A DNA stretch of 64,000 nucleotides from an uncultured Clostridia bacterium (GTDB lineage: Bacteria; Bacillota; Clostridia; Christensenellales; UBA1242), in the NCBI GenBank assembly GCA_944331845.1, contig CALVIT010000001.1:48-64047 (forward strand), written 5' to 3'. The notes beneath the pieces were generated by a model. The model had not been told where the DNA came from and ran no database searches. It saw only the letters and a program-made list of their open reading frames with translations. Positions 2,971 to 61,000 of this stretch are shown here, piece after piece (within the stretch, counting starts at the first letter, position 1; every line of letters begins with the position of its first letter). Made by a program: the position numbers and the translations under genes.

Positions 2971-3693
2971 TCATTCACTTCGTGCGATAAAAACAAGTAG
3001 AAGGAATCTTAATAATTCAAGCACTGCAACAACAAAGGATGCGACATAAGTTAGAGCGGCGGCTTTAAGCACTTTGGATGCTCCAGCAAGTTCTGTCTCT
3101 GTCATAAAATTGCCACCTTCAAGCATTTTTAAAGCACGGGAAGATGCGTCAAATTCTACAGGTAGTGTAATAAGATTTAGCAGTACTGCTAGTCCGTAGA
3201 ATGCTACTCCTGACCATAAGAAAATCGAACCTAATACTCCGCCTGTTGCACTGAATGCGCCTAACAATATACCTATGATAACAAGTGGCCACAGTAAGGT
3301 AGATGCGAAGTTAGTTATAGGAACTAAAATTTGTCTAAAACCTAAGAACGCATAATGTTCTTTTTTTTGTATAGCGTGACCTACTTCGTGCATAGCGATA
3401 CCTAGGGCTGCAACTGAAGTGCTGTCGTAGACACCTTCTGACAATGCGATATATTTCTTCTTAGGGTGGTAGTGGTCGGTCAAATGCCCGTTTTCTCTTC
3501 TAAGTTCAATATCTTGTAGGCCTGCATTGTCAAGGACTGCTCGTGCTAACTGCGAAGCGGTCATACCGTTCTCTGTATCTATTTGACTATAGGTATTGTA
3601 AGTCTTAGAAACTTTTGTTTGAGCGTAGATACCTAGCACAATACCCGGTATCAAAAGTACGCCTAATAGAATATATAAAAAATATAAAACCAA
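2971..3693 (-). CDS. Membrane zinc metallopeptidase, YugP / Zn_peptidase_2 family
   Basis: N-terminal TM segment, HEVGH (HExxH) motif in AALGIAMHEVGHAIQ, C-terminal TM helices, size about 240 aa. Confidence 0.8.
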   Translation of the reverse strand: MVLYFLYILLGVLLIPGIVLGIYAQTKVSKTYNTYSQIDTENGMTASQLARAVLDNAGLQDIELRRENGHLTDHYHPKKKYIALSEGVYDSTSVAALGIAMHEVGHAIQKKEHYAFLGFRQILVPITNFASTLLWPLVIIGILLGAFSATGGVLGSIFLWSGVAFYGLAVLLNLITLPVEFDASSRALKMLEGGNFMTETELAGASKVLKAAALTYVASFVVAVLELLRFLLLVFIARSE

Positions 3694-5134: not shown

Positions 5135-5959
5135 ATGGATAATCAAAAATTCTTAAGTCGTGGAACAAAGACTTTTAGTGTGGTTACAAGTGTTCTTTTG
5201 TCACTCGCTATTCTCATTTTGGTCATAATAGGACTCATAGGGGGCGATTTCTTAACAGTATCCCTAATTGGTTCGTGTGTTATAGTGTTCTTGACTGCTA
5301 TATTTATTGGGGCAATGCAAATAAAAGTATTTGGAGACTACAAGAGTCAAAAAAAATACCTTTGTGCTGATGGCATATTCTATATTTGTCTTACAATTTT
5401 AGTTGCTATCACTGCTATTATGTACACTATGTTCAAAGATGCGAATGTAGACATTAGATATTTTATATTTGTATTTACTTTGGCATTTGCAGTCTGGAAG
5501 ATTATAATTGCAGTATTAGCATTTAAGAATAAATATTTCAATGCTTTTGCTGAATTGCTTATCGCTATATTTTGGATAGTTAGCGGTGTAGGCGTATTAC
5601 TAACTATATTTGATAACCTAGAGAATGTAGGACAATATGTATTGTGCATATCTAACTATTTGTTGTGCTTATCTACAATATTCTATATATTGTATTCATA
5701 TTCTTTCAAAGACCCTAACTATCTCATAACTGACAAAGCGCTGGAAATACTTGAGAAGGAGCAAATAGAGCGTCAACAGAGATTAAATAGATTCAATGGC
5801 GGATTTGGTGGGCAAGTGGCACAACAAACACAACAGACAAATTCTGCTGATGATGTTGAATCAAAGTTGAAGAAACTTCAAAATCTTAAAGATAAGGGCT
5901 TTATAACTGAAGAAGAATTTGAAGCGAAGAGAAAAGAAATTCTTAATAGCGAATTTTAA
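5135..5959 (+). CDS. Polytopic membrane protein with a C-terminal SHOCT domain
   Basis: Multiple TM helices. The C-terminus KLKKLQNLKDKGFITEEEFEAKRKEILN matches the SHOCT (short C-terminal) domain pattern. The start abuts the stop of the upstream gene. Confidence 0.65.
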   Translation: MDNQKFLSRGTKTFSVVTSVLLSLAILILVIIGLIGGDFLTVSLIGSCVIVFLTAIFIGAMQIKVFGDYKSQKKYLCADGIFYICLTILVAITAIMYTMFKDANVDIRYFIFVFTLAFAVWKIIIAVLAFKNKYFNAFAELLIAIFWIVSGVGVLLTIFDNLENVGQYVLCISNYLLCLSTIFYILYSYSFKDPNYLITDKALEILEKEQIERQQRLNRFNGGFGGQVAQQTQQTNSADDVESKLKKLQNLKDKGFITEEEFEAKRKEILNSEF

Positions 5960-5976
5960 AGAAAACAAATTATAAT

Positions 5977-6009
5977 AAAAAACTTTTGGCTTTTGTCAAA
6001 AGTTTTTTT
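5977..6009 (+). terminator. Rho-independent terminator
   Basis: Stem AAAAAACTTTTG / CAAAAGTTTTTT with an 8-nt loop and a T-run, 18 nt after the stop at 5959. Confidence 0.75.
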
Positions 6010-6038
6010 GTGTCAATGTAAGAAGTAGGCGTATTTTA

Positions 6039-6520
6039 TGTAAGGGAACTACCCGTTCCCTTACGAACCCTTAGGCAAGGGGTAGAGAGTGTAGGGGATT
6101 TTCCATCCCCTACGACCCTAGTACAAGAGCAGGGCTCTTGACTTGTGTACTAAAAGTACATTAAATGTACTTGAGTACGCAAGACTCAAATTATATTGCT
6201 TTTTGCTAGATGCAAAAAGTAAATATTATTAAGTTTTAAGCACGAGACTTGTATTGTGTGCATAACCAAATAAACAGGTCAAGGACAATGTCCTTCAACT
6301 TCGGGTGTGGGGGATGGGAAATCCCCTACAAACAAAGACAGTGCAAGGGGACTACTCTTATCTAGTACTTTTAGTGTAAGGGAACTACCCGTTCCCTTAC
6401 GAACCTTTAGGCAAGGGGAGTCCCCCTTGACCTGTGTACTATGGGTGCACATACCAAACTTAGGTGCGAAGAACTTATAATATTTTGCTTTTTGCTAAAT
6501 GCAAAAAGTAAATAACATAT
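6039..6520. repeat. Cluster of GC-rich stem-loop repeats (two degenerate units about 290-336 bp apart)
   Basis: The 44-mer tgtaagggaactacccgttcccttacgaaccYttaggcaagggg occurs at 6039 and 6374 with 1 mismatch. gctttttgctaRatgcaaaaagtaaata occurs at 6198 and 6487. The hairpin GTAGGGGAT-loop-ATCCCCTAC sits at 6091, with an inverted-loop copy at about 6309. Further hairpins are CAAGAGC-AGG-GCTCTTG (6124), AAGGAC-AAT-GTCCTT (6281) and CAAGGGG-AGTC-CCCCTTG (6411). Confidence 0.8.
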
Positions 6521-6548
6521 AGTCATACGCACACAAGATGTGCTAAAA

Positions 6549-6705
6549 TGTGGACAAAATAGTTAATTATATAATTATAATAGTTAAGAGATTATTAATT
6601 AGTTAACCAAAAACTTTGGTAAGACTGCACAAATTTAGAACAAATTAAGTATAAATGGGTAAAGTTATCCACATTTTGTGCACATTTGTGGATAACTTAT
6701 CCACA
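6549..6705. promoter_or_regulatory. DnaA-box cluster (three perfect TTATCCACA 9-mers plus one near-consensus box)
   Basis: TTATCCACA at 6665-6673 (+), TGTGGATAA at 6687-6695 (-), TTATCCACA at 6697-6705 (+), and TGTGGACAA at 6549-6557 (1 mismatch). Confidence 0.7.
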
Positions 6706-6878
6706 AATTGAAAAATTTGTATCATTTTGTCAAATATTGTCGCATTTTGATACTGCTATTTTTTGACTTACTAACAAGCAAATACTACATAAATTTATTA
6801 AAATTGTAATACTGATTTCATACATTTGACTTTTTTTGTAAAATGTTCTATTCTTGTATTGTTGAATAGGAGTTAGAT

Positions 6879-8933
6879 ATGAAAGAAAATTTACAACCAC
6901 TTTTTACGCCTTGGAAGATAGGCAATGTCGAGATTAAGAATAGAATTGTGCTTTGTCCAATGGGTGGAACTTCACTATTTGGGTGGATGGAACCTAACCA
7001 TTTTGATGAAGAGTCTGCAGAATTCTTCTTGGAGAGAGCGAGAAATAATGTTGGACTCATTATACCGGGCATTGCACCGCTCAAAGACACTATTGGCGGT
7101 CGTTGGCTTTATCAAAACAAAGGTATGTTTAAGAAATTAAAAGAGTATATGACAGAGATTCACAAGACGGGGGCAAAACTTTTTGTTCAGTTAACCGCTG
7201 GATTTGGTAGGTCATTTGCTATAACTGAGAGTTTAGAATTTTTGTTAAAAAACAAAGTCATTGGAGCGTTAGCGAAACCTATAATTAATGCTTCTTATTT
7301 GTGCGCTAGTCCTAGTGAACTTCCTTCTAGGTGGGCTGAAGACATTAAGGTTAGGGCTTTAACAAAGAAGGAAATTCTAGATATGATTGACGCATTCGCT
7401 AAGACTTCTAAACTATGTAAAGAAGCAGGAGTCGATGGCGTTGAAGTGCACGCTGTACACGAAGGTTATTTACTCGACCAATTCACAACGCAATATACGA
7501 ACCATAGAACTGATGAATATGGCGGAAGTTTTGAGAATAGGTATCGTTTCGCAGTTGATGTCGTAAAGGCGATTAAGAGTGCGTGCGGTCAAGATTATCC
7601 TGTGTCTTTGAGATACTCGGTTGTTAGTAAGACAAAAGATTTCTGTAGTGGGGCGATGCCTAATGAAGAATACAAAGAAGTGGGTAGAGATTTAGCAGAG
7701 AGCGAGAAGGCTGCTAAATATTTACAAGATGCAGGCTATGATATGTTAGATGCTGACAATGGTACTTACGATGCTTGGTACTGGGCGCATCCACCGGCTT
7801 ATATGCCACAAAACTGTAACCTTGAAGAAGTAGCACATATCAAAAAATTTGTTGACATACCTGTTGTTTGTGCGGGTAGAATGGATGTCAATGTCGGTGC
7901 TGAAGCGGTTAAAGATGGTAGAATTGATGGCGTAGGTTTCGCTAGACAATTCTTGGTCGATGGAGAGTGGGTAACTAAACTTATTGAAGGTAGAGAAGAA
8001 GATATCCAACCTTGTATATGTTGTCATAATGCTTGTTTTACTATGGCACACTACAAGGGGGTAGCAAATGACCAAGATTTTGATGATATTAAACATATGT
8101 CAAGATGCGCTTTGAACCCACAAACTATGCAACGCAAGAAGTTTGCTTTAACTAAAGCAAAGCGCCCTAAAACTATCGCAGTCATTGGCGGTGGAATTGG
8201 TGGAATGGAAGTCGCTAGAATTGCAACATTGCGTGGGCACAAGGTAACAATTTATGAGAAGACTAACTCCTTAGGTGGCGTGTTCGTACCAGCGGCAGCG
8301 TTTGATTTCAAAGAGAAGGACAGGGAGTTAATCGAATTTTATAAGCGACAAATTAGCAAGTTAAATATTGAAGTCGTTTATAATACTGAGATAATTGACT
8401 TAAAATCAATCAAAGCAGATGAGATAGTAATCGCTACAGGGTCAAAGCCTAGACAATTAAGACTACAAGGCATTGAAAATTCAATAGAAGCAGTTGAATA
8501 CTTAAGCGGACAAAAGCAAGTAGGTCAAAATGTTGTCATAATAGGTGGCGGATTGACTGGGTGCGAGATAGCGTACGACTTACATAGACACGGCAAGAAC
8601 CCTATCATTGTAGAAATGAAAAATGATTTAATGGCAGTCAAGGGAATTTGTCTAGCGAACTCTTCATATTTGAGAGATTATTTTAAACTACATAATGTAC
8701 TTATTTATTTAGAAAGTTCTGTAAAAGAAATTAAAGACAATTCAGTTGTCATCGTTGATAAATCTAATAATGAGCAAGAAGTCGCTAAGGATGATGTCAT
8801 TGTGTCAGTTGGATATAACCCTGCACCAATCGCTAAAGAAGGTAAGCATATCCATATCGTAGGCGATGCGTATAAGGTCGGCAATCTAAGGACTGTCATT
8901 TGGCGTGCGTGGGAAGTCGCTCGAAAACTTTAA
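6879..8933 (+). CDS. NADH:flavin oxidoreductase of the 2,4-dienoyl-CoA reductase / 2-enoate reductase family (OYE-like FMN domain + 4Fe-4S + FAD/NAD(P) domain)
   Basis: N-terminal OYE-type TIM-barrel motifs (IKNRIVLCPMGG, HAVHEGYLLDQF). Cys cluster CICCHNAC...RCALNP. C-terminal Rossmann motifs (IAVIGGGIGG and VVIIGGGLTG). Confidence 0.85.
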   Translation: MKENLQPLFTPWKIGNVEIKNRIVLCPMGGTSLFGWMEPNHFDEESAEFFLERARNNVGLIIPGIAPLKDTIGGRWLYQNKGMFKKLKEYMTEIHKTGAKLFVQLTAGFGRSFAITESLEFLLKNKVIGALAKPIINASYLCASPSELPSRWAEDIKVRALTKKEILDMIDAFAKTSKLCKEAGVDGVEVHAVHEGYLLDQFTTQYTNHRTDEYGGSFENRYRFAVDVVKAIKSACGQDYPVSLRYSVVSKTKDFCSGAMPNEEYKEVGRDLAESEKAAKYLQDAGYDMLDADNGTYDAWYWAHPPAYMPQNCNLEEVAHIKKFVDIPVVCAGRMDVNVGAEAVKDGRIDGVGFARQFLVDGEWVTKLIEGREEDIQPCICCHNACFTMAHYKGVANDQDFDDIKHMSRCALNPQTMQRKKFALTKAKRPKTIAVIGGGIGGMEVARIATLRGHKVTIYEKTNSLGGVFVPAAAFDFKEKDRELIEFYKRQISKLNIEVVYNTEIIDLKSIKADEIVIATGSKPRQLRLQGIENSIEAVEYLSGQKQVGQNVVIIGGGLTGCEIAYDLHRHGKNPIIVEMKNDLMAVKGICLANSSYLRDYFKLHNVLIYLESSVKEIKDNSVVIVDKSNNEQEVAKDDVIVSVGYNPAPIAKEGKHIHIVGDAYKVGNLRTVIWRAWEVARKL

Positions 8934-21829: not shown

Positions 21830-24640
21830 ATGCTAGGGGGGGGGGGGCGTACTAAGACCCAAGAAATAGGGCAAACTAGCGACAAAATAATACATAATGA
21901 ATTAACCAATAAAAAGGTAAATAGCATTAATGATAACAAAGCAATCAATATTAATGATTACAACAATATAGAGAATAATAACTCTAATAATATTGATAAA
22001 ATCTATAAAATCAATAAGGTAAATTATAAAAATTGTAATTCTAATATAGATACTTATAATAAATTAGTTACAAAAAAGAATAATACATTTATAAAAACTG
22101 CGCTACTTATCGTATCGTGGCTTTTTGTGGTTGTATTAAGTATCTTTGTTTTATGCAGTGCTAATGCAAATTCAAATATGAATAAATTAAATACTCCTAA
22201 CAATGCTATAGCGGTAGGTAGTACAACAGATGATGGAACAACTGCTTCAAGTTTTGCAGGCGGTACAGGAGACCCTGACGACCCATATCAAATAGCAACG
22301 CCTATGCAGTTAAGATTATTATCAATAGATAGTAGTTATTGGGCAGATAGTTTTATACAAACAGCGAATATAACTTATACTACTGATAGTTGGAATCCTA
22401 TAGGAAATGCAACAACCAAATTTACTGGTAATTTTAATGGTGGTGGATATGTCATTAAATTTGATAAACAAATTTCATTTAGTAATTTTACTGGGAAGTT
22501 ATATTCAGGTTTATTTGGATACGTGCAACAAGGAGAACTTCTTAATATTAGCGTCAAATGGGAATCAGGCATTAATGCATCTGTAGATTTGAGTGGTATT
22601 GATGACATTGAACCCGAAGATATGCAGAAAGCAGGGAATTATAATGCTTATGTAGGAGGTATTGTTGGATATGCAATCAATGAAAATATATATAATTGTC
22701 AACTTAGTGTAGGAGAGATTATTGTTCAAGGAAATGTAAATAATATCTATGGCGGTAGCGGATGGGTTTACGCTGGTGGGATTGTAGGTTATGCTGTTTC
22801 AAATTCAATAATTAAGGGGTGTAAGAATGCAGGTATGGTATCTGCCTCTGCTAATGTGAATCCCCCATCTTGGGATCCATATGGCGCTGAAAATGCATTT
22901 GCTTATTCTGGCGGGATAGTTGGCTATGGAGAATGTAATATGTACAATTGTTTAAATCTAGGTGAAACTGATGCTGATTCTCGTAGTACTACTTATGGGG
23001 AAAATTTGTATTCATATTCCGGTGGAATAGCAGGGGTGTTAAATGGTGGAGCAATTTATAATAGTTATAATGCTGGAAATTGTAGCGTGAGTGGAAGTTA
23101 TTATTTCTACCTTGGTGGTATAGCTTCTGTAGCAGAATCTGTTTCCATTGTTAATTGTTTTAATGTAGGTGGTTTTGAGCCTAGTGGCATTGCACTTATG
23201 GCAGGAATATCGGGGAATGCTTCAGGAATAATTCAAAATTGTTTTAATACAGGTGATGTATCTAATTATTATGGAGATTATGGTAATTCTTCGGGGATAT
23301 ACAGAGGAACGGCAACAGCTGAAAATTGTCAATTTAGTAGTCCTAATGAAGAAGACAATATAGATGGAACAACTTATAATGCTGATTTAACCTCTAATCT
23401 TTTTCAACAAGAAAACACTTTTACAAACAGCGAAAATAATATGTGGCATAGTTCTTCTTATTGGGATTTTACAAATGAGTGGAATATTGATACTCGTGAA
23501 GGCATTAGCGAGAGCGAAAGAGTTAATAGTGGATATCCATATCTTCGTGCTATGGAAGAATATGCTATCACCTACACAGCAGGCGAAGGTACTGGGGATG
23601 AGAAACTGATATATTACGGACTTAAATCTTCTTCGCCACAAGCAACATTACCTAATGGCACAGCAAGCGAAATAGAGTTTGTAGCACCCGATGGAATGGC
23701 ATTTGATTGTTGGGTTGATGAAAGTGCTCAAACATATCAAAGTGGGCAACAAGTTACTTTGACAGAGAATTTAGTACTAACTGCTCAATGGAAAGTACCT
23801 TATATCGACTTTAATATTGCATTAGATTTTAATGGCGGAAAAGGTGGTACTGTTACACAACTTGAAGTTAAACAATCAGTACCACAAAAAACACAATTTG
23901 CGACTAATGAACTACCTACAAGAAGCGGGTATACATTTAATGGGTACTATACTTCTCAAACTAATGGTACAATGTATGTAAATAGTGCTGGGCAAGTCGT
24001 AAAAACTAATACAAGTGATTACCTAACACAAATACCAACATTATATGCTCAATGGGTAGCAAATACTTATACTATTGTATTTAATTCAAATGGTGGACAG
24101 GGTCAAACAATGCAGTCAATGTCAATGACTTATGACACACCAAAGAATTTGACAAAGAACGCATATAGTAGAGATGACTACACATTCATAGGTTGGGCGA
24201 CAACTAAAGAAAGGGCAGACAGTGGGCAAGTAGACTATGTGGATGAAGCACAAGTTAATATTGTAACTACTAACAATGATACAATCACACTCTATGCGGT
24301 ATGGAAGTCAAACTATGTAGGAGTTACATTCAATATCACAACGAATGTAGGGGTTATATTCAATGTCTATGATAGTGATAATAACTTTGTACAACAAATA
24401 TATATAGGTAAGAGCAAAAATAATGCAGAGCAGACTATAAGTACACAATTATTAAAAGGTAAGACTTACACAATTAGAATGAGTGCGTTCTCTTCTGCTA
24501 ATATAACATTAGATAGTATTAATTCAATGTCTGGGGTATCAATGAGTGGTAGGACATTGACTATCATAGTTAATGAGAGCAGTAACACAATTACAATGAA
24601 TGTCAGCGGTTACACTTTCGGTAATGGTATCATTGTGTAA
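21830..24640 (+). CDS. Giant GLUG-repeat surface protein with Listeria-Bacteroides (Flg_new) repeats. The likely true start is ATG 21811, out of frame at the G12 tract.
   Basis: N/K-rich N-terminus, then the TM/signal anchor ALLIVSWLFVVVLSIFVLCSANA, GLUG-type units (AGGIVGYA...NC.N.G), and GYTFNGYY / YTFIGWAT Flg_new repeats. The RBS AAAGGAGAGAG serves ATG 21811, which reads MLQENKNARGGGAY-stop with 12 G. Confidence 0.85.
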   Translation: MLGGGGRTKTQEIGQTSDKIIHNELTNKKVNSINDNKAININDYNNIENNNSNNIDKIYKINKVNYKNCNSNIDTYNKLVTKKNNTFIKTALLIVSWLFVVVLSIFVLCSANANSNMNKLNTPNNAIAVGSTTDDGTTASSFAGGTGDPDDPYQIATPMQLRLLSIDSSYWADSFIQTANITYTTDSWNPIGNATTKFTGNFNGGGYVIKFDKQISFSNFTGKLYSGLFGYVQQGELLNISVKWESGINASVDLSGIDDIEPEDMQKAGNYNAYVGGIVGYAINENIYNCQLSVGEIIVQGNVNNIYGGSGWVYAGGIVGYAVSNSIIKGCKNAGMVSASANVNPPSWDPYGAENAFAYSGGIVGYGECNMYNCLNLGETDADSRSTTYGENLYSYSGGIAGVLNGGAIYNSYNAGNCSVSGSYYFYLGGIASVAESVSIVNCFNVGGFEPSGIALMAGISGNASGIIQNCFNTGDVSNYYGDYGNSSGIYRGTATAENCQFSSPNEEDNIDGTTYNADLTSNLFQQENTFTNSENNMWHSSSYWDFTNEWNIDTREGISESERVNSGYPYLRAMEEYAITYTAGEGTGDEKLIYYGLKSSSPQATLPNGTASEIEFVAPDGMAFDCWVDESAQTYQSGQQVTLTENLVLTAQWKVPYIDFNIALDFNGGKGGTVTQLEVKQSVPQKTQFATNELPTRSGYTFNGYYTSQTNGTMYVNSAGQVVKTNTSDYLTQIPTLYAQWVANTYTIVFNSNGGQGQTMQSMSMTYDTPKNLTKNAYSRDDYTFIGWATTKERADSGQVDYVDEAQVNIVTTNNDTITLYAVWKSNYVGVTFNITTNVGVIFNVYDSDNNFVQQIYIGKSKNNAEQTISTQLLKGKTYTIRMSAFSSANITLDSINSMSGVSMSGRTLTIIVNESSNTITMNVSGYTFGNGIIV
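21836..21847 (+). repeat. Poly-G tract (12 G) in the 5' coding region
   Basis: Counted directly: G at 21836-21847. It lies between the RBS-linked ATG (21811) and the long ORF. Confidence 0.95.
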
Positions 24641-25159: not shown

Positions 25160-25639
25160 ATGGAAATAAAAAAATTCAGTGAATTAACTATTGAACAAGT
25201 GAAATATATCGCTGATTCGAATTACAATTATTGGAAACAGATTAACCCTGACCTTAATTATGAAGAATCAACTTCAAATATTATTAGTATGAAAGAAAAC
25301 TATAATACTTTACCGCTAGGGCTAGCGTTAGTTGATAATGATAAATTAATTGGTTTTTGTACTTTAAGAACAAATCGTCTTAAACATCATCTTAACTTTA
25401 ACCCTTGGTTATGTAATTTATTAATTTTTGAAGATTATAGGGGCAAGGGTTATGGTAAAACTATGATAAACTATGCTTGCAAAAAAATTAAGGAATTAGG
25501 TTATGATAAGATTTATGCTTGGACTGACCAAGCGCCTGAGTTTTATAAGAAACTCGGTTGGCAATTTGTACAAAATGTTATTAAGAACGAAGGTTGGGAA
25601 GCATTACTTTTTGTGAAAGATTTAACTAATTTAGATTAA
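25160..25639 (+). CDS. GNAT family N-acetyltransferase
   Basis: Motif A YRGKGYGKTMINYACKKIKELGY. The TGGAG RBS favours ATG 25160 over the track start 25145. Confidence 0.75.
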   Translation: MEIKKFSELTIEQVKYIADSNYNYWKQINPDLNYEESTSNIISMKENYNTLPLGLALVDNDKLIGFCTLRTNRLKHHLNFNPWLCNLLIFEDYRGKGYGKTMINYACKKIKELGYDKIYAWTDQAPEFYKKLGWQFVQNVIKNEGWEALLFVKDLTNLD

Positions 25640-25820
25640 TCGAAAATGTATTTTGAGTTATTTTAAGTTTTAAATGTTATTATAAAAACTAAATAATATG
25701 TATTCATTCTTATTCAATTTATTAATACTGCAAGATTTATTAATATTTATAATCATTTTATTTATGCTATAGTTGTATACGATTTTATAATATATCACTA
25801 ATGTTAATAATATATAAAAT

Positions 25821-25860
25821 AAAAAATTGTTAATGATATCTTCTTCATTAACAATTTTTT
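25821..25860. terminator. Bidirectional rho-independent terminator
   Basis: Perfect 14-bp stem AAAATTGTTAATGA / TCATTAACAATTTT flanked by A- and T-runs, between convergent genes. Confidence 0.8.
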
Positions 25861-26047
25861 TAAACCAAAAATACAAATTTACAAAAATACAAATAAGTAT
25901 ATAAGAGTGAAGTCAAATTCTTTTTAGGTTAAAATACACATTATATAAATTGTAGATATTTAATCTCTATATTTTTATATTAATTTTATATTATTTCATT
26001 TATTCAAAAAAAATTATTATTTTGTTAAATGTTATAAAGTTATTAGA

Positions 26048-27310
26048 TTAGTTTTTTAATTTATCTTGTAAATGGGTTAGAGATATTAGTATTCCTAATT
26101 TACCATATTCGTAAGTTAAACCGCCTTGCATATATGCTGTGTATGGCGGGGTAATAGGTCCATCACAACTTAATTCTATTGTTGACCCATTTATGAAACT
26201 TCCGCTTGCCATTATTTCTTCGTGTGGATACCCTGGCATTTCGCTAGGCATAAGAGTTACAAAATTCTCAAGTGCTACGCCTTTTTGTATGCCTCGGCAA
26301 AACTCAATTAATTCTTCTGCTGAATTTAATTTGACTGTTTGAACTATATCTGTTCTTGGTTCGTCGTATTGTGGACTGACTTCGTATCCTAACTTTGTTA
26401 ATAGATAACTTGCTAGGGTCATTGACTTAAGGGCGGAGCATACTACGCTTGGTGCGTGATATATGCCTTTGTAGAATGAGAGTAGTTGATTCATATTCGC
26501 GCCTATGTCTTTAGCGACACAAGGGGCGGAGAATCTCTCGGCGACATCGTGTACATACTCTGCTTTGCCGACTACATAACCGCCTGTTTTTGCTTGGCCT
26601 GCACCTAAATTTTTCATAAGCGAGCCGACAATAATATCCGCTCCAACTTCTATAGGTTCTCTAGTCTCTACGAAGTCTCCATAGCAGTTGTCTACCATTA
26701 TTATGACTTCTTTGTCAACTTCTCTAATCTTTTTGCAAACATTCTCTATTTTGCTAATATCAAGACTTAGGCGGTCGCTATATCCTCGAGACCTTTGAAT
26801 CTCTACCATTTTGACCTTAGACTGCTTAAGTCTATTGATTATCTTATCAATATCAAAGTCATTGTCGACTAATTCTATTTGTTCAAAGTTTATTCCGTGC
26901 GCTAACAAAGAATTACGACTATTGCCTGTGAGTCCTACTATGCTCTTAAGGGAGTCATATGGTTCGCCTGTTATTGATATTAATGTGTCGCCGTATTTTA
27001 GTAACCCAAAGAATGTTATCGCTAATGCGTGTGTACCTGACATTATTTGTGGGCGGACAAGTGCATCTTCTGCCTTAAAGACTATGCTGTATACTTTCTC
27101 TAATTTGTCCCTGCCGACATCAAAGTACCCATATCCTGTGTTCTCGCAAAAATCTGTGGCATTCAATTTGACTTCGTGTAAGGCATTAAGAACTTTGGCG
27201 CTATTAAATAGACAAACTTCATCGTATTTTTTGAATATAGGTTCAAGTTCTTGTTCTGCTTGTTTTGTTAATTCTAATAGTTCTTGTGAAATATTTAATC
27301 CGTTAAACAT
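26048..27310 (-). CDS. YnbB / aluminium-resistance-type PLP enzyme (Met_gamma_lyase family)
   Basis: NSAKVLNALHEV...NTGYGYFDVGRDKLEKVYSIVFKAEDALVRPQIMSGTHALA...GEPYDSL matches the conserved N-terminal pattern of this family. Length 420 aa. Confidence 0.8.
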   Translation of the reverse strand: MFNGLNISQELLELTKQAEQELEPIFKKYDEVCLFNSAKVLNALHEVKLNATDFCENTGYGYFDVGRDKLEKVYSIVFKAEDALVRPQIMSGTHALAITFFGLLKYGDTLISITGEPYDSLKSIVGLTGNSRNSLLAHGINFEQIELVDNDFDIDKIINRLKQSKVKMVEIQRSRGYSDRLSLDISKIENVCKKIREVDKEVIIMVDNCYGDFVETREPIEVGADIIVGSLMKNLGAGQAKTGGYVVGKAEYVHDVAERFSAPCVAKDIGANMNQLLSFYKGIYHAPSVVCSALKSMTLASYLLTKLGYEVSPQYDEPRTDIVQTVKLNSAEELIEFCRGIQKGVALENFVTLMPSEMPGYPHEEIMASGSFINGSTIELSCDGPITPPYTAYMQGGLTYEYGKLGILISLTHLQDKLKN

Positions 27311-40820: not shown

Positions 40821-40966
40821 ATTATCACCTACATTAAGTTTTGACATAAATATTTTTTTTAAACAAAATTGTAGGGAATTCGTAGGCTTTGTGTGCTTTT
40901 GTAATGGTAAATAACAAAATCGCATTGATTTACATATATTGATAAAGAAATTTAAGTGAGGTTTTG

Positions 40967-42070
40967 ATGAATTTTTGTAATTATAATAAATGTAATTGTT
41001 GTTGTAATCAATCAAATGTTGATAAGATAATTAAATGTCAAAAAGGTGTTAATGGGGCGACAGGTGCGACAGGGCCTGCAGGTCCTACCGGTCCAATGGG
41101 ACCAACGGGTCCAACAGGCCCTGCTACAATCACTGTGGGGACTATTACACTTCTACCTGCTGGGTCTACTCCAACAGTTACAAATAGCGGAACTAATCAA
41201 GTTGCGGTATTTGATTTTGGCATACCTGAGAGCGTTACGGGCCCAACGGGGGCAACGGGGGCGACAGGTCCAACAGGAGCTACAGGTGAGCAAGGTGAAC
41301 AAGGGGTACAAGGGATACAAGGCGAAGTGGGACCAACGGGCGCTACGGGACCATCAGGTAACAATGTATTTAACCCTTATGAAATATATGTAAGAAGCAA
41401 TACTGTTGGGGGAATAGGAACTCAAAGCAATCCATTACCTAGTATAGAAGACGCATTACAAGTTGTCGCTAATAATGGCACAATATATGTCTACGATGGC
41501 ACATATCCTATAGATACAACTAATACCATATCAAAGAATAATATCACATTGACTGCTAAACCAAATGCGACAATATTATTGACTTCTAATGTAGTTCCTT
41601 TCTTAATAACAGGCAGTGGAAATACGCTTGAAGGATTCACAATGACAAGTGACAATGTATATCCTAATGAGTTCATACAGATAGGTGGGAATAATAATGT
41701 CATACGGCACAACATAATTTATGGTCCTACGCAAAGTGGAAGTTCAGACACTTGGGTAGCGAATAGGGGTGTAGTGACTCAAGCGAGCACGCAAAATAAT
41801 TGGATAGATGACAATATCTTCTACTCTTTAAGACAAAGTGGATACTTGAATCCTAATTCTACAGGATATATAACTCATAATGTTGTATTTAATACAAGGG
41901 GTTGGGTAGTAGACAGTGCATTATTTCAATTCTCTGGGAATTCTTGGGGTGAACCAGAAAATGCTGTTGATATTGCTCTATTGAGTGGTACGACTTCGGG
42001 TGTGCCTTATGCTTCAGTCGCAGATTTACAACAAAATAATAGTAATGCAAATATAAGCGACCAAAGATAA
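40967..42070 (+). CDS. Collagen-like triple-helix repeat protein with a C-terminal right-handed beta-helix-like domain
   Basis: Cys-rich N-terminus (NKCNCCCNQ). Two G-x-y runs (GATGATGPAGPTGPMGPTGPTGP and GPTGATGATGPTGATGEQGEQGVQGIQGEVGPTGATGPSG) flank a spacer of about 35 aa. The C-terminal part carries parallel beta-helix-like repeats. Confidence 0.8.
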   Translation: MNFCNYNKCNCCCNQSNVDKIIKCQKGVNGATGATGPAGPTGPMGPTGPTGPATITVGTITLLPAGSTPTVTNSGTNQVAVFDFGIPESVTGPTGATGATGPTGATGEQGEQGVQGIQGEVGPTGATGPSGNNVFNPYEIYVRSNTVGGIGTQSNPLPSIEDALQVVANNGTIYVYDGTYPIDTTNTISKNNITLTAKPNATILLTSNVVPFLITGSGNTLEGFTMTSDNVYPNEFIQIGGNNNVIRHNIIYGPTQSGSSDTWVANRGVVTQASTQNNWIDDNIFYSLRQSGYLNPNSTGYITHNVVFNTRGWVVDSALFQFSGNSWGEPENAVDIALLSGTTSGVPYASVADLQQNNSNANISDQR

Positions 42071-42483
42071 TTAGTTTGAAATGAAGCAAGTATTATATGA
42101 TTTGTAGTTATAAATAAAAAACTAATAAGTAAAAAATGAAATAGTTATAGAAGCAAGAGATTTGCCTAATAAATAAAAAGGTGAACTCTTGTATTTTTTT
42201 GTAAGCATTAATAATCTATGCGATTAAAAATTAAATATTTTGATTATTAGATTATAAATAAAATGTTCAATTATAAGCCAAATATTGAATAAATTAGTTT
42301 TATTAACAAAATATAAGCATTTATTAGATATAGACAATTAACAATATATGAATAACTTATGTAATATTGTATATTTACGAACAAATATTATTTATGAAAT
42401 ATAAATGAATATGAATAGGGGTATTGAATAACCATAATAGAAGAGTAGATTGTGTCGGCAGTCATTTATAACTTGTAATCTAT

Positions 42484-42511
42484 AAAAAAGCCTTTTGCAT
42501 AGGCAAAAAGC
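42484..42511 (-). terminator. Rho-independent terminator (minus strand)
   Basis: On the minus strand: GCTTTTTGC-ctat-GCAAAAGGC followed by T6, about 200 nt after the stop of the 42716-44305 gene. Confidence 0.6.
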
Positions 42512-42715
42512 ATTATAAATTATAAAATACAATATAATTAACAAAAATAATTCATCTGCATTAATTGTTATAATAGTACAAAAATTGTTATTAATTATTA
42601 ATAACTTGATCATATAATTGACATAAAATACTAAATAATAATTACAAAGCAATACTAAATAATTTAATCAAATTTTATAAAGTTTTGTATACTCCTACAA
42701 TATTTACATCATCAA

Positions 42716-44305
42716 TTATTTGTCTTTGTATGTTTCAAGTTTTGCTAATTTTTTTTGTCTTCTTTCTTCTTCAATCTTCTTTAGTCTTTCATTATTACTT
42801 TGTATTTTTTTATTTCCCACAAAGAAGTCATAACATATAACTCCTAGACCTTGTAATAGATAGATATAATATTGGAAAATTCTATATATAAGCATTGCCC
42901 ACAGAGTCGTACCTGATGATAACGCAAAGTATGCAAACATTGTTGTATAAGTTACTTCCGCTACACCACCAGCACCTGGCCAAGGAATGTATGACAATAC
43001 CGCTTCAATAAGCACACACCATATGAAGACAGCGCTGTATATCTCGAATGAGAAACCGCCTTCATTAAACATACACACTACAAAAGTAGGTATAGCATAT
43101 CTTGTGCAGATGACAAGCAGTGTAGAACCTGCCATCATAAAGAAGTTTGGAATATTAGATACGAAATATCTAAATGTTTTTTGGTATTCGCCGACAAATC
43201 TCATAACCTTGCGATACAAAGATGTGTAGTCTTTGATTATACGCATTTTGAATAACAACTTCAAGATGCCGATTGTAACGATGGGACCTACTTTCTTACT
43301 AAATGAGAGTACGAAAACAAATAACATTATGCAGGTATTAATGACAATGCCCACAATAGCGGCGGAGTATACGCCTTTAGATAACCCGCCTGCAATTTTT
43401 TCGCTAAATATCAACACGCAAACAGATATAATAAATGTTACCATATGATTAAATATATATACAGCAAAAGGCATAGTTGAGGCGGTACTAGCGCGGATTC
43501 CTCGCTTTTTGAGATAATATATTTGCATAGGTTGCCCACCAGTTGATAAAGGTGTGATATTATCGTAGTATTTACCAATCGCTGCTACCTTGTAACTTAA
43601 GAAAGGGCGAGAATGACGGGTTGATTTCCATATCAAAATATAGTATCTCAGACCTTCAAATAACATAAGTAAAATAAAGGCAATAAATGCTAACAATAAA
43701 TACCACAAGTTAGCGACTTTAAACATTTGTGATATGGACACCATACCTTCTTCTTTAGAAGCGGATATCGCTACTGCTACAACAATGATGACAACATTTA
43801 TAATCAAAAATATTAGGCTGAGCGTTCTACTTTTTTTAGATTTTTGTTGTTTTGCTTTTTGTTCAGCGTCTTTGGCTATTTCTTCGGCTATCTTCTTCTG
43901 CTTGTTACGCTCTTCAATGCTTGAGTAAGTGCTAAATAATTCGTTATTAATTTTGGCTTTGTTGCTTAACTTAAATTTGAATTTATGATGAGTTGGTTTT
44001 AAATTTTTGACTATATGATTTTGTGTGTTGTAGAGTATAGGTTTGTTACAAATTTTGATTAGAGTATGCAGAGATTGATTTTGTGCAGGGTCATTATTAA
44101 GTGTTGCAGTGCTAGCATTATCTATATCTATTGTAGGTAAATCATTCGCATTTTGTTTTAAAGTATCTTTAGGTGTTATGTCTTGTGAATTTAATTTAGA
44201 TTGAGATTGGGTTAATTCTTCATTATCTTTAGCATTATTATTTAATTTTAAATTATTTTGTTTATCAACTTTATAGTTGTTCTTTCTCTTTAATTTTTTT
44301 GACAT
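42716..44305 (-). CDS. Flippase-like / LPG_synthase_TM (UPF0104, MprF-TM-like) membrane protein with a long basic N-terminal extension
   Basis: KVAAIGKYYDNITPLSTGGQPMQIYYLKKRG is the UPF0104 signature. About 8 TM helices. A low-complexity K/N/Q-rich N-terminus of about 165 aa. Promoter TTGACA-17-TATCAT and AGGTG RBS upstream. Confidence 0.7.
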   Translation of the reverse strand: MSKKLKRKNNYKVDKQNNLKLNNNAKDNEELTQSQSKLNSQDITPKDTLKQNANDLPTIDIDNASTATLNNDPAQNQSLHTLIKICNKPILYNTQNHIVKNLKPTHHKFKFKLSNKAKINNELFSTYSSIEERNKQKKIAEEIAKDAEQKAKQQKSKKSRTLSLIFLIINVVIIVVAVAISASKEEGMVSISQMFKVANLWYLLLAFIAFILLMLFEGLRYYILIWKSTRHSRPFLSYKVAAIGKYYDNITPLSTGGQPMQIYYLKKRGIRASTASTMPFAVYIFNHMVTFIISVCVLIFSEKIAGGLSKGVYSAAIVGIVINTCIMLFVFVLSFSKKVGPIVTIGILKLLFKMRIIKDYTSLYRKVMRFVGEYQKTFRYFVSNIPNFFMMAGSTLLVICTRYAIPTFVVCMFNEGGFSFEIYSAVFIWCVLIEAVLSYIPWPGAGGVAEVTYTTMFAYFALSSGTTLWAMLIYRIFQYYIYLLQGLGVICYDFFVGNKKIQSNNERLKKIEEERRQKKLAKLETYKDK

Positions 44306-45500: not shown

Positions 45501-45506
45501 ACTTGT

Positions 45507-53763: not shown

Positions 53764-54123
53764 TTATCATTGTTAATTTTGTATGAGTAATAAATTTATT
53801 AAAACAAAGCAAATATTAATCTAGAATTATTCGCTTTGTTTTTTTATATAATTTTATTATAGATTGATGTAATTCATTCTTATGATTATTGTATATTTGA
53901 TAAATTATATAAAAATAAGTTAAATAGGTACGAATAATTTTTGTTATTATATATTAAATAGTTTTATAAAACCATTAAAATTATTTGACTAAAAATTAGG
54001 TGTTAAAATGCACTATATTTAATCAAGACATATAATTATGTTTTTAACTCTTTTGCAAAAGTGTTAATAACATATTTGTGGACTAAAAAATTTGGGCGTG
54101 CATATAATATTACAGGTGATATT

Positions 54124-54417
54124 ATGAATAAATTAATTGTTAAAGTGGGGTACAATGATAGTTTATCTAAAATAGCAGAGCGTTATAATTTAACAACAAA
54201 AATTTTGAGTTCCGCTAATAACAATATAACTGAAGTTGAGGAAGGAGATTATTTGATTATTCCTTTTAAGGCGAAGGCTATTCACACTGTGCGACCTCTT
54301 GAGACTTTAAATGAAATTGCACAAAAATATTGTGTAAATGTGGATAAGTTAAAAAGTGATAACAACATTGTTGCTCCGCTTTTTGTCGGGCAACAAATAA
54401 TTATTATGGATGATTAA
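54124..54417 (+). CDS. Small tandem LysM-domain protein with no signal peptide
   Basis: AGGTGA RBS before ATG 54124. Two LysM-type units (VKVGYNDSLSKIAERYNLTTKILSSANN and HTVRPLETLNEIAQKYCVNVDKLKSDNN). Confidence 0.7.
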   Translation: MNKLIVKVGYNDSLSKIAERYNLTTKILSSANNNITEVEEGDYLIIPFKAKAIHTVRPLETLNEIAQKYCVNVDKLKSDNNIVAPLFVGQQIIIMDD

Positions 54418-58020: not shown

Positions 58021-61000
58021 ATGCGAGCAAACAATGGAGGTAATGAAATGCGCAAACAAGATACATACAACGAAATAATGGATAGAAGAGTAGAAGAGAC
58101 TAGTATAGACAACAATAGTGGTCTTTTTGTGGATACAACAAATGTAGGAAAATATACTAAAAAAGAAGAAAAGGTCTTGTCTAGAGTACAAGCATTACAC
58201 AAGCGAGCAGGACACATACGCTCAAGGGTAGGGCAAAGTGCTAGTATAGGTGTACAACACACAAATACCTTTATGCGCTCTACAGTACAATTAGTATTGT
58301 GGTTATTAGCATTTGTCATGAGTCTAACAATGGTATGTTGTCTTAGTACAAATAAAGGCACTTTGAATGAAGTGAACGCAGTTAGTGGGACTGCTATCTC
58401 TACAGTGGATGAATTGAAAGCGGTGGCAAATAACTTAAGTGGTAGTTATTACCTAGCGAATGACATAACAGTAACTGACAGCACTTGGACCCCTATAGGC
58501 ACATCTTCAAGTAGTACATTTAAAGGCACATTTGATGGTAATGGCTATAGTATCACCTTTACTCAAACTATACATATCACAAGTTCTTCAGGGTCTGCTT
58601 ATGGCGGATTATTTGGTTATCTTACTAGTGCCACAATTAAGAATTTGGGTGTCATATGGTCAGAAGATAGCATAGATATTAATATAAATGGCGAAACAGA
58701 ACCATACACAGGCTTAGTAGTATCTTCTAAATCCAGTGTCCATGCCGGGGGGATCGTGGGGTATGCTTCTGTTTCAATCATAAGTAACTGCTACAATATG
58801 GGTGCAGTGAGTGCAGAATCGGCATCTTCTACTGCCTATGCAGGCGGAATTGTGGGAAATAATAATAATTCTTCAATCATCAGCAACTGCTACAACACGG
58901 GTGCAGTAAAGGCGACTGCTTCTGCTTCTTCAAAGACTGCTTATGCAGGCGGAATCGTAGGGGATTCAGATAATCCCATCAGCAACTGCTACAACACAGG
59001 TGCAGTGAGTGCAGAATCGGCATCTTCTACTGCCTATGCAGGCGGAATCGTGGGGGATGCGGGTAATCCCATCAGCAACTGCTACAACACAGGTGCAGTA
59101 AAGGCGACTACTTCTGCTTCTTCAAAGACTGCTTATGCAGGTGGCATTGCGGGGAATGGTGGTTATGGTACAACCATCAGCAACTGTTTTAGTATAGATC
59201 CTAACCTTAGTGATAGCATTAATACATCACCTAGTGCAGAAGTGAATAAAGCAGTCAATCTTACAAATGTAGGTGGTATAGTAGGAAGTGGCGGTACGGT
59301 AAATTATGGTTATCATAATTATGTAAGTTTAGATAATATCAATAAAGGTACCTATGTAGAGACCCTTGCTAGTTTCCTTGTATATTCAAATAATAATGCT
59401 AGTATAATAATTGATAATTATAAGTTTGGTTTTACAGTTAATACTATTAATTATGGATGGGACTCTGCTTGTACTTGGAATTTTGACATTATATGGAAAG
59501 TAAATACTGATGCTAGTACAAGTAATACTCAACCTTTAATTATAAATATGAGAATTCCACAATTTAGTGGAGAGGGGACCGCAGATTCACCATACATAAT
59601 TTCCAATTCTGACGATTTAAAGTCGTTGTCAAGTGCAGTTAGTGTGGGGCTCTTGAATGATTCCTATTATAGAGTAGAGTCACAAAATCTAAATAAAGTG
59701 ATAGAAATAACTGACAATACCTGGACCCCTATAGGTACATCGTCAAGTAGTGCATTTACTGGAACATTTGATGGTAATGGGCACAGTATCACTTTTACGC
59801 AGACTATATATATAACAAGCAGTTCAGGTGATGTCTATGGCGGACTATTTGGATATGCTAGTGATGCGACAATATCTAATTTAGAAGTTAACTGGGCAGG
59901 TACTAACACGATTAGTAATTATACAGGTCTGATAGTATCTTCTACAACTTCTACTGCCTATGCTGGGGGAATAGCGGGGTATGGTGAGAAAATTAGTAAT
60001 TGTTATAGCACGGGAGCAGTGACTGCGACTTCTACTCATACTTCTTCTAATGCCTATGCAGGAGGAATCGCGGGGTATTGTGGAACCATCAATAGTTGCT
60101 ACAATGAGGGAGCAGTGACTGCGATTTCCACAACTTATGATGCCTATGCAGGTGGAATTGCAGGAAAAGTGGTAGACCTTATATGTAATTGCTACAACAC
60201 GGGCACAGTGACTGTGACTGACTCAAGGTATGCCTATGCCGGAGGAATTTCTGGCAAGGCTTCGTCTTCAACAACAATCATTAACTGCTACAACACTGGC
60301 GCAGTGGATGCAACTTCTACATCTTCTTTTGTCTATGCAGGCGGAATCGTGGGATATGCAGAAGAGGCAACCAGTAGCAACTGCTACAACACTGGCGCAG
60401 TGGATGCAACTTCTACATCTTCTTCTGTCTATGCAGGCGGAATCGTGGGGTATGCAAAAGAAGCAACCAGTAGCAACTGTTTTAGTATAGATCCTAACCC
60501 TGATGATGATATTGATACAACACCTAGTGGTAAAACTGTAGGTGCTATAGTAGGAAGTGGCGGTACAGTAAATTATTGTTATCATAATTATTCATCAATT
60601 AATACAACAACTACTGGAACTGCAACGATTTATAATTCAAATTTGGCAGGTTTAGTAAAACAAAAAGATGAGTTTCTTGCATTAACTTGGGACCCTATTT
60701 ATCTTTGGAACTTCAACATTGTATGGGAAGTAAATACTGATGATAGTACAAGTACTACTCAACCATTGATAATTAATATAAGGGTTCCATTTACAGGAGC
60801 AGGTACTGAAGAATCTCCATATATAATATCCGATTCTGATGATTTAAAGTCATTGTCATATGGAATCAACTTGGGACTCTGGAATGATTCGCATTTTAGA
60901 GTTGAGTCACAAAATCAAAATAAAGTGATAGAAATAACTGACAATACCTGGACCCCTATAGGTACATCGTCAAGTAGTGCATTTGAAGGCACTTTTGATG

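Follow-up and report, generated by a model that had tools for sequence, protein, structure and literature searches.

The REP, REPIN and BIME sequences of Proteobacteria are mobilised by Y1 transposases of the RAYT type, and GTAG-headed REP-like hairpins are, to our knowledge, poorly documented outside this group. STAR elements of Staphylococcus aureus share with the locus described below the arrangement of short GC-rich repeats at regular intervals between the genes of an AT-rich Bacillota genome, and strain-dependent array lengths; STAR units are direct repeats and not perfect hairpins, and we know of no sequence similarity between the two. REPs are defined by a 5'-GT(A/G)G head placed directly before a GC-rich palindrome (PMC2817692). 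Group 1 RAYTs have been reported in Clostridia (PMC5581495), and BOX elements, in which a short internal module occurs a variable number of times, reside in a low-GC Gram-positive host (PMC3049150).

The locus lies in a stretch of 64 kb from an uncultured Clostridia bacterium of gut type (the window, analysed over its full length). The hairpins clustered at 6034-6574 probably represent a nest of copies of a lineage-specific mosaic palindromic repeat, non-coding and non-autonomous, resembling both MITEs and REPs. The cluster is located in a 919-bp gap (5960-6878) which separates a SHOCT-domain gene (5135-5959) from a 2-enoate-reductase-like flavoprotein gene (6879-8933), and which is the largest in the window, as stated in the preliminary description, provided that a 118-aa ORF at 54061-54417 counts as a gene. 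The hairpins listed in that description were all found in place (Table 1), although the loop-inverted copy of H2 at 6307-6329 contains one G.T pair and is not perfect. The 44-mer repeated with one mismatch is present as well, its copies beginning at 6039 and 6375, not 6374, and the segment CTTGACYTGTGTACTA occurs twice, at 6137 and 6426.

Table 1. Features of the hairpin cluster and its upstream flank (positions in the window)
Feature	Position	Strand	Remark
Terminator-like hairpin AAAAAACTTTTG-N8-CAAAAGTTTTTT followed by T	5977..6008	+	12-nt arms, 100% complementary
Truncated type-1 arm head	6034..6082	+	94% to 6370-6418
Hairpin H1, GTAAGGGAAC-TACCC-GTTCCCTTAC	6040 and 6376		
Complete two-arm palindrome, type 2	6086..6334	.	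covariance-model units, arm alignment, DNA fold
Terminal hairpin H2, GTAGGGGAT-TTTCC-ATCCCCTAC, REP-like	6091..6113	+	GTAG head plus GC-rich palindrome; head definition PMC2817692
Second hairpin h2, CAAGAGC-AGG-GCTCTTG	6124..6143	+	3' arm overlaps invariant CTTGAC
Promoter-like TTGACT-17-TTAAAT	6138..6166	+	-10 weak, not conserved between arms
AT-rich hairpin S, TTGAGT-ACGCAAG-ACTCAA	6171..6189	+	poorly conserved among copies
Central hairpin T, TTGCTTTTTGC-TAGAT-GCAAAAAGTAA	6196..6222	.	symmetry centre of two-arm element
Core of hairpin T, CTTTTTGC-TARAT-GCAAAAAG	6199 and 6488		
Second hairpin of inverted right arm, AAGGAC-AAT-GTCCTT	6281..6295	-	adjoins inverted TTGACC motif
Terminal H2 of inverted right arm	6307..6329	-	- strand GTAGGGGATTTCCCATCCCCCAC; + strand with G.T pair
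Half-H1-like GCAAGGGGACTAC	6344..6356	+	direct repeat with 6040-6052
Type-1 arm (unit B)	6370..6517	+	covariance model 6410-6517
Hairpin CAAGGGG-AGTC-CCCCTTG	6412		
Degenerate inverted arm sharing T of unit B; right edge of cluster	6479..6574	-	31.5 bits, E 6e-5

The density of GC-rich hairpins is unusual, as had been claimed. When perfect hairpins were scanned for (stem ≥6 with ≥3 G/C, loop 3-8), 14 of the 45 entries of the 64 kb fell in 6030-6530; nine distinct perfect GC-rich hairpins are found there in 500 bp, and the next densest 500-bp bin of the window holds 3 entries. According to shuffled sequence, chance matches to the long hairpin sequences are expected 0 times. The G+C content of the element is 0.40-0.45, against a window mean of 0.32. 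RNA folding of the 501-nt stretch, compared with dinucleotide shuffles, gave z values of -12.4 and -12.3 for the + and - strand (-206 and -190 kcal/mol, respectively), and the 249-nt palindrome at 6086-6334 folds as DNA at -60.8 kcal/mol, with z = -10.9.

The building blocks are homologous arms of about 130 nt, which align mutually in both orientations. Where two degenerate units had first been described, three to four arms are present, one of which is inverted. A covariance model built from 14 units, and run with filters off over the 64 kb, recovers + strand arms at 6121-6228 (92.4 bits) and 6410-6517 (89.9 bits), the inverted arm at 6190-6299 (-, 50.6 bits) and the degenerate inverted arm at 6479-6574 (-, 31.5 bits); no further arm was detected elsewhere in the window. 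Each arm opens with a terminal GC hairpin, which is H1 in type 1 and the REP-like H2 in type 2, followed by a linker, GA(AC)CC.TAG, and by a second GC hairpin of 6-7 bp, the 3' arm of which runs into an invariant CTTGAC. A variable stretch, the AT-rich hairpin S and half of hairpin T (TTGCTTTTTGC-loop-GCAAAAAGTAA) complete the plan. In the two-arm element, a left arm (6086-6222, +) and a right arm (6196-6334, -) have the central hairpin T in common. T is made up of 11 pairs, including one G.T on the + strand, and its stem is invariant in the 14 units. The terminal inverted repeats of this element are 60 nt long (6090-6149 / 6271-6330) and 73% complementary. The truncated head to its left includes H1 (6040-6064), the linker GAACCCTTAGG and a half hairpin, CAAGGGG. 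Unit B, to the right, includes H1 at 6376-6400, the CAAGGGG hairpin at 6412-6429, TTGACC at 6427-6432 and a T hairpin, TTGCTTTTTGC-TAAAT-GCAAAAAGTAA, at 6485-6511. Between the H1 and H2 subfamilies, and among second hairpins, stems have changed on both sides with pairing left intact: paired double changes are seen at position 4 (A-T versus G-C) and position 10 (C-G versus T-A), together with one paired indel.

Copies of the repeat reside in a related genome. By scanning species-representative genomes for GTAAGGGAACN5GTTCCCTTAC, nine copies with the same loop were identified, spread over 5 contigs of a single MAG (uncultured Eubacteriales CASDSK01, 31% GC), in addition to two unrelated hairpins with another loop. 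Coding DNA of the MAG is 70-84% identical to that of the window, and the MAG thus represents a sister species or genus. Downstream of H1, the MAG has the modules of the window in unchanged order. The covariance model found 12 units scoring >100 bits in 45 kb of the MAG, all of them intergenic, and intergenic regions of up to 1.3 kb are nearly all composed of element mosaics. TRF periods of 186 bp and 18 bp correspond to tandem units and to a small hairpin, CAAGGGCTATCCCTTG, present in 1-3 copies, respectively. Almost all units are in direct orientation within the arrays, and most arrays point into the 3' ends of convergent genes. H1 and the linker are 93-98% identical between window and MAG, and the H1 at 6040-6064 matches the nine MAG copies at 25/25 positions. 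This level exceeds coding identity, as expected of an end recognised by a protein. Tandem 186-bp units pack several MAG regions (L003 3440-4770, L004 3286-3830 and 6782-7260, L006 3830-4485), and further modules occur in the arrays, one of which is a terminator-like hairpin, itself repeated, joined to GGCGTCAGCATTGCCCAGCACAAGGGCTATCCC. Where synteny between window and MAG breaks, arrays are found; in L006, for example, the order is window 8937, array, window 30982.

Beyond the MAG, the searches were negative. No copies were found in the DNA compared from two more distant relatives, whose oxidoreductase proteins are 82% (L011) and 77% (L012) identical to that of the window. JGI metagenome scans with the T hairpin and H1 were empty, scans of viral contigs with H1, H2 and the h module of the MAG returned only an unrelated solitary hairpin (L015), and BLAST of the element against phages and plasmids gave no match. 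A literature search for the hairpin sequences retrieved only unrelated primers, and concatenated stop-free translations of the element had no hits among 5.8 billion proteins. Small conserved peptides were considered and discarded, as short ORFs of the unit, compared by eye, are not conserved between window and MAG. An association with tRNA, tmRNA or rRNA genes was discarded as well, a single tRNA-Ser (L004) lying far from the arrays.

The locus is an insertion relative to the MAG. The orthologous gap of the MAG lacks the element, and the flanking DnaA boxes and the downstream promoter can be aligned. The reverse is also true, since three MAG arrays occupy places where the window has plain AT-rich spacer (42070-42716, 25639-26048, and downstream of 13741). 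Orthologous sites of the two species are therefore polymorphic for the element, each species having it where the other does not, as is known for MITEs. Within the species the locus varies too, at least three structural alleles being distinguished (the window and at least two others). In two metagenomic contigs with flanks almost identical to the window (L009, L010) the gap measures 746-747 bp, against 919 bp in the window, and contains one chimeric two-arm element, with a type-1 left and a type-2 right arm; the about 95 nt which follow resemble the ancestral spacer of the MAG. In a third contig (L014) the half-H1 is joined to unit B, which is equivalent to the loss of 6053-6356 between imperfect 13-nt repeats at 6040 and 6344. 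L013, L014 and L016, which derive from three independent short-read assemblies of the window's species, all end inside the element, and an N-gap in scaffold L009 adjoins it. Such breaks are typical of repeats, but could be caused by local duplication alone. At its end, L016 carries a variant continuation, GTAAGGGAACTACCCGTATTT, which from its sequence hints at another allele or copy.

The boundaries show no clear target-site duplication when the window is compared with L010, L014 and the empty site of the MAG; the only candidate is the imperfect 13-nt repeat 6040/6344, for which a deletion fits equally well. As for other copies, they are many in the sister-species MAG, but within the window's own 64 kb the repeat occupies one locus only. 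Taken together, modules dispersed and in tandem in the sister genome, the insertion relative to the MAG and the polymorphism within the species support the suggestion, made in the preliminary description, of a REP- or MITE-like palindromic repeat family.

The element shares with REPs, REPINs and BIMEs the nature of short, GC-rich extragenic palindromes, and copy sets which differ between lineages. The GT(A/G)G head is present in H2 (GTAG-GGGAT..ATCCC at 6091; GTGG/GTAG at 6307) and in one MAG copy (L005:820), and is missing in H1, which has a GTAA head, and in the small CAAGGG hairpins. As in REPINs, an inverted pair of H2 bounds a longer hairpin-forming doublet (6090-6330), and as in BIMEs, units are clustered into mosaics with other motifs. 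Yet, with arms of about 130 nt and a doublet of about 250 bp, the element is longer than REPINs, which measure roughly 70-110 bp; and MAG arrays are made of direct tandem units, not of units in alternating orientation. REP/RAYT systems have a cognate, single-copy Y1 transposase gene with the repeats on its flanks; no RAYT gene was found among ORFs of the window or beside the MAG arrays. REP-type repeats are present in tens to hundreds of copies per genome, to be compared with nine exact H1 and 12 strong units in 45 kb of a fragmentary MAG.

Similarities to MITEs (Neisseria Correia, B. cereus bcr1, enterococcal/pneumococcal RUP-type) are equally evident. The element is non-coding and shorter than 300 bp, has terminal inverted repeats and a strongly paired fold, is polymorphic in its insertions between strains and species, and, as Correia elements, carries a promoter-like -35 motif. 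In contrast to MITEs, no target-site duplication was seen in the alleles compared, and each end is a perfect hairpin in its own right. Phage and plasmid collections did not reveal a parent IS whose ends match. The modular build, the variable copy number of CAAGGGCTATCCCTTG in the MAG and the strain-to-strain length variation at a given locus recall pneumococcal BOX (boxA-boxB(n)-boxC), the comparison being one of build only; the set of modules is different, and tandem units of the MAG are 186 bp long. By analogy, the element would fit MITEs for its inverted ends and insertion polymorphism, REP/REPIN/BIME for the GTAG head of its GC hairpins, its inverted doublet and its mosaic clusters, and BOX for the modular length variation in a low-GC Gram-positive. 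Membership in any one family cannot be claimed, because neither a target-site duplication nor a cognate transposase was seen in the DNA compared, and the count in the genome of origin is limited to 64 kb. Judged by eye against their general features, attC/integron sites (no attC core sites seen), CRISPR (no spacer-repeat organisation seen) and IS200/IS605 PATEs (the ends of the element are inverted repeats, not the unlike ends of IS200/IS605) were set aside.

Two arms inverted around T constitute the long palindrome of about 250 bp at 6086-6334, with truncated and single arms at its flanks. Copies may have been spread or rearranged by a trans-acting enzyme recognising the terminal hairpins, one candidate being a Y1 transposase of the RAYT/IS200 type with specificity for hairpins, another the transposase of an IS, and recombination, slippage or template switching between modules would contribute. 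Y1_Tnp genes, or genes of other transposases or RAYTs, are missing among the 38 ORFs of the window and the 10 ORFs beside MAG arrays, and the neighbours of the element and of the arrays are all housekeeping genes. At most, the element could provide a cruciform or hairpin block, or a weak internal promoter. It most likely is near-neutral passenger DNA, since it sits after the terminator-like hairpin at 5977-6008 and well upstream of the promoter of the next gene. This terminator-like hairpin belongs to the SHOCT-domain gene, is conserved in conspecific contigs, and precedes the element by about 25 nt; the conserved promoter of the oxidoreductase gene is at 6826-6854. Several observations weigh against the reading as mosaic repeat copies: in the window's own 64 kb a single locus is known, dispersal being seen in the MAG; no transposase or RAYT gene was found in the window or beside the MAG arrays, and no clear target-site duplication at any boundary; the metagenome and viral scans gave no further copies; the element is GC-richer than its genome, unlike classical AT-rich MITEs; and H1 and the T stem, with its invariant + strand G.U, are conserved across species, which could instead reflect a cellular function.

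If the reading as a mosaic repeat is right, the family is previously undescribed and resides in an uncultured lineage of Eubacteriales; short-read assemblies are interrupted by its members (three contigs stop within the present one), which also enlarge intergenic space in MAGs, coincide with synteny breakpoints in the sister species, and may serve as strain-typing markers. A GTAG-headed REP-like hairpin in Clostridia would be a modest addition to REP/RAYT biology, and no long-standing question is opened by it. A bolder hypothesis is that the hairpins are the recognition ends of an undescribed hairpin-specific mobilisation system of low-GC Clostridia, for example a Group-1-RAYT-like Y1 transposase acting on modular arms of about 130 nt, and that the elements carry a functional, inward-facing promoter, so that spread and tandem amplification would rewire transcription and mark synteny breakpoints. 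We regard this hypothesis as unlikely.

Not much should be expected, either, of the hypothesis that the host selects the element as a cis-acting site, either because it offers a DNA-binding protein (a nucleoid protein, gyrase, an IHF-like protein or a regulator) arrayed binding sites or cruciforms, or because it forms a block of hairpins stabilising mRNA, or insulating, between the upstream terminator and the oxidoreductase promoter with its DnaA boxes. It would account for the conservation of H1 between species, higher than that of coding DNA, and for hairpins kept perfect through compensatory change. As REPs do in 3' UTRs, four of the six MAG array ends lie within 0-76 nt of stop codons, and REP/BIME sequences are known to be bound by proteins (PMC2817692). 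However, the orthologous site is empty in the sister species and the structure varies between conspecific strains, with the neighbouring promoter and the DnaA boxes unchanged, which indicates that no locus-specific role is required. Moreover, the element is located downstream of a terminator-like hairpin with a T-run, and is thus probably outside the upstream mRNA.

The units might alternatively be a multi-copy family of sRNA genes, and not selfish DNA, each arm having a sigma-70-type promoter (TTGACT-17-TTAAAT / TAATTT) and directing the synthesis of a hairpin-rich transcript (S and T). The promoter-like sequence pointed out in the preliminary description is indeed present. All 14 units, which come from two species, contain CTTGAC without change, the 17-nt spacer varying freely, the G.U in the invariant T stem of the + strand corresponds to an A.C mismatch on the other strand, and the + strand folds somewhat better than its complement (see the energies above). 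The site is weak, though, with only the -35 half conserved, and was not reported by a promoter scan. The TTGACT at 6138-6143 doubles as part of the 3' arm of h2, and the TTAAAT hexamer lacks the A at position 2. The -10 hexamers match TATAAT at about 3/6 positions and vary by arm (TTAAAT, CATACC, CATATC, TAATTT, TCATTT, TAAGGT), at a distance of 17 nt, or 19 nt in MAG variants, from the -35. On sequence grounds, promoter function is possible but unproven. A further point against it is that all GC-rich hairpins lack a T-run, in agreement with the preliminary description; the T hairpin at 6196-6222 passes a lenient terminator scan (3 GC pairs, tail ATATTATT). In the MAG, T is followed by an A-rich tract, and no hairpin of the element has a GC-rich stem directly before a proper U-tract, the mark of an intrinsic terminator. 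The family shows no covariation and no Rfam match, arms are inverted and truncated, and MAG arrays face the 3' ends of convergent genes. sRNA genes are, all considered, quite improbable. The strand bias of G.T pairs, tried as a clue to an RNA strand, was dropped, being inconsistent from hairpin to hairpin.

The other proposal of the preliminary description, a single large and ornate structured ncRNA of the ROOL/GOLLD/OLE/raiA/HEARO class across about 6039-6520, was prompted by GC-rich hairpins so closely packed in an AT-rich genome, and agrees with the very low folding energy, but is extremely improbable and largely refuted, because the gap contains no match at gathering score to any Rfam 15 family, those five among them, the two strands do not differ in how well they fold, as would be anticipated for palindromic DNA, hundreds of bases are deleted or replaced in conspecific strains, the locus is empty in the sister species, and conservation is limited to local hairpins, in modules reshuffled, inverted or truncated from copy to copy. 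The best Rfam 15 score in 5800-7000 is 30.7 bits to a plant miRNA-precursor model having a gathering score of 230; this model is the sole source of hits with E<0.01, on both strands of the long palindrome (30.7 and 24.4 bits). Throughout the window, the only hit at gathering score is an L10 leader at 45503, and the search of six MAG loci at gathering and permissive thresholds yielded nothing relevant. RNAalifold run on the 14 units, with a covariation term of -0.03, retains just two local hairpins, h2 and T, and no long-range structure.

A few additional features of the contig may be mentioned. A cluster of DnaA boxes resides directly to the right of the element (6545-6705). Three of the five perfect TTATCCACA boxes of the 64 kb are found there within 41 bp, at 6665(+), 6687(-) and 6697(+), and TTGTCCACA occurs nearby, at 6549(-). 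The MAG of the sister species keeps the cluster in front of its oxidoreductase ortholog. No switch of GC skew is seen at the cluster, and mnmG/gidA lies 22 kb away; the boxes may represent a DnaA-regulated promoter or a DnaA titration cluster. GLUG motifs are found in two proteins (512-1525 and 58021-63699), one of which is 1892 aa long, and the same contig encodes a collagen-repeat protein (40964-42070) and a protein with Listeria-Bacteroides repeats (21830-24640), and thus hosts several large surface-type repeat proteins. Finally, the Zn_peptidase_2 gene is a single ORF of 240 aa in the window (2971-3693, -), and is called as fragments of 117 and 113 aa in the conspecific contigs L009 (2285-3007) and L010 (704-1426), which, on the basis of the sequences, suggests a frameshift or stop variant between strains.
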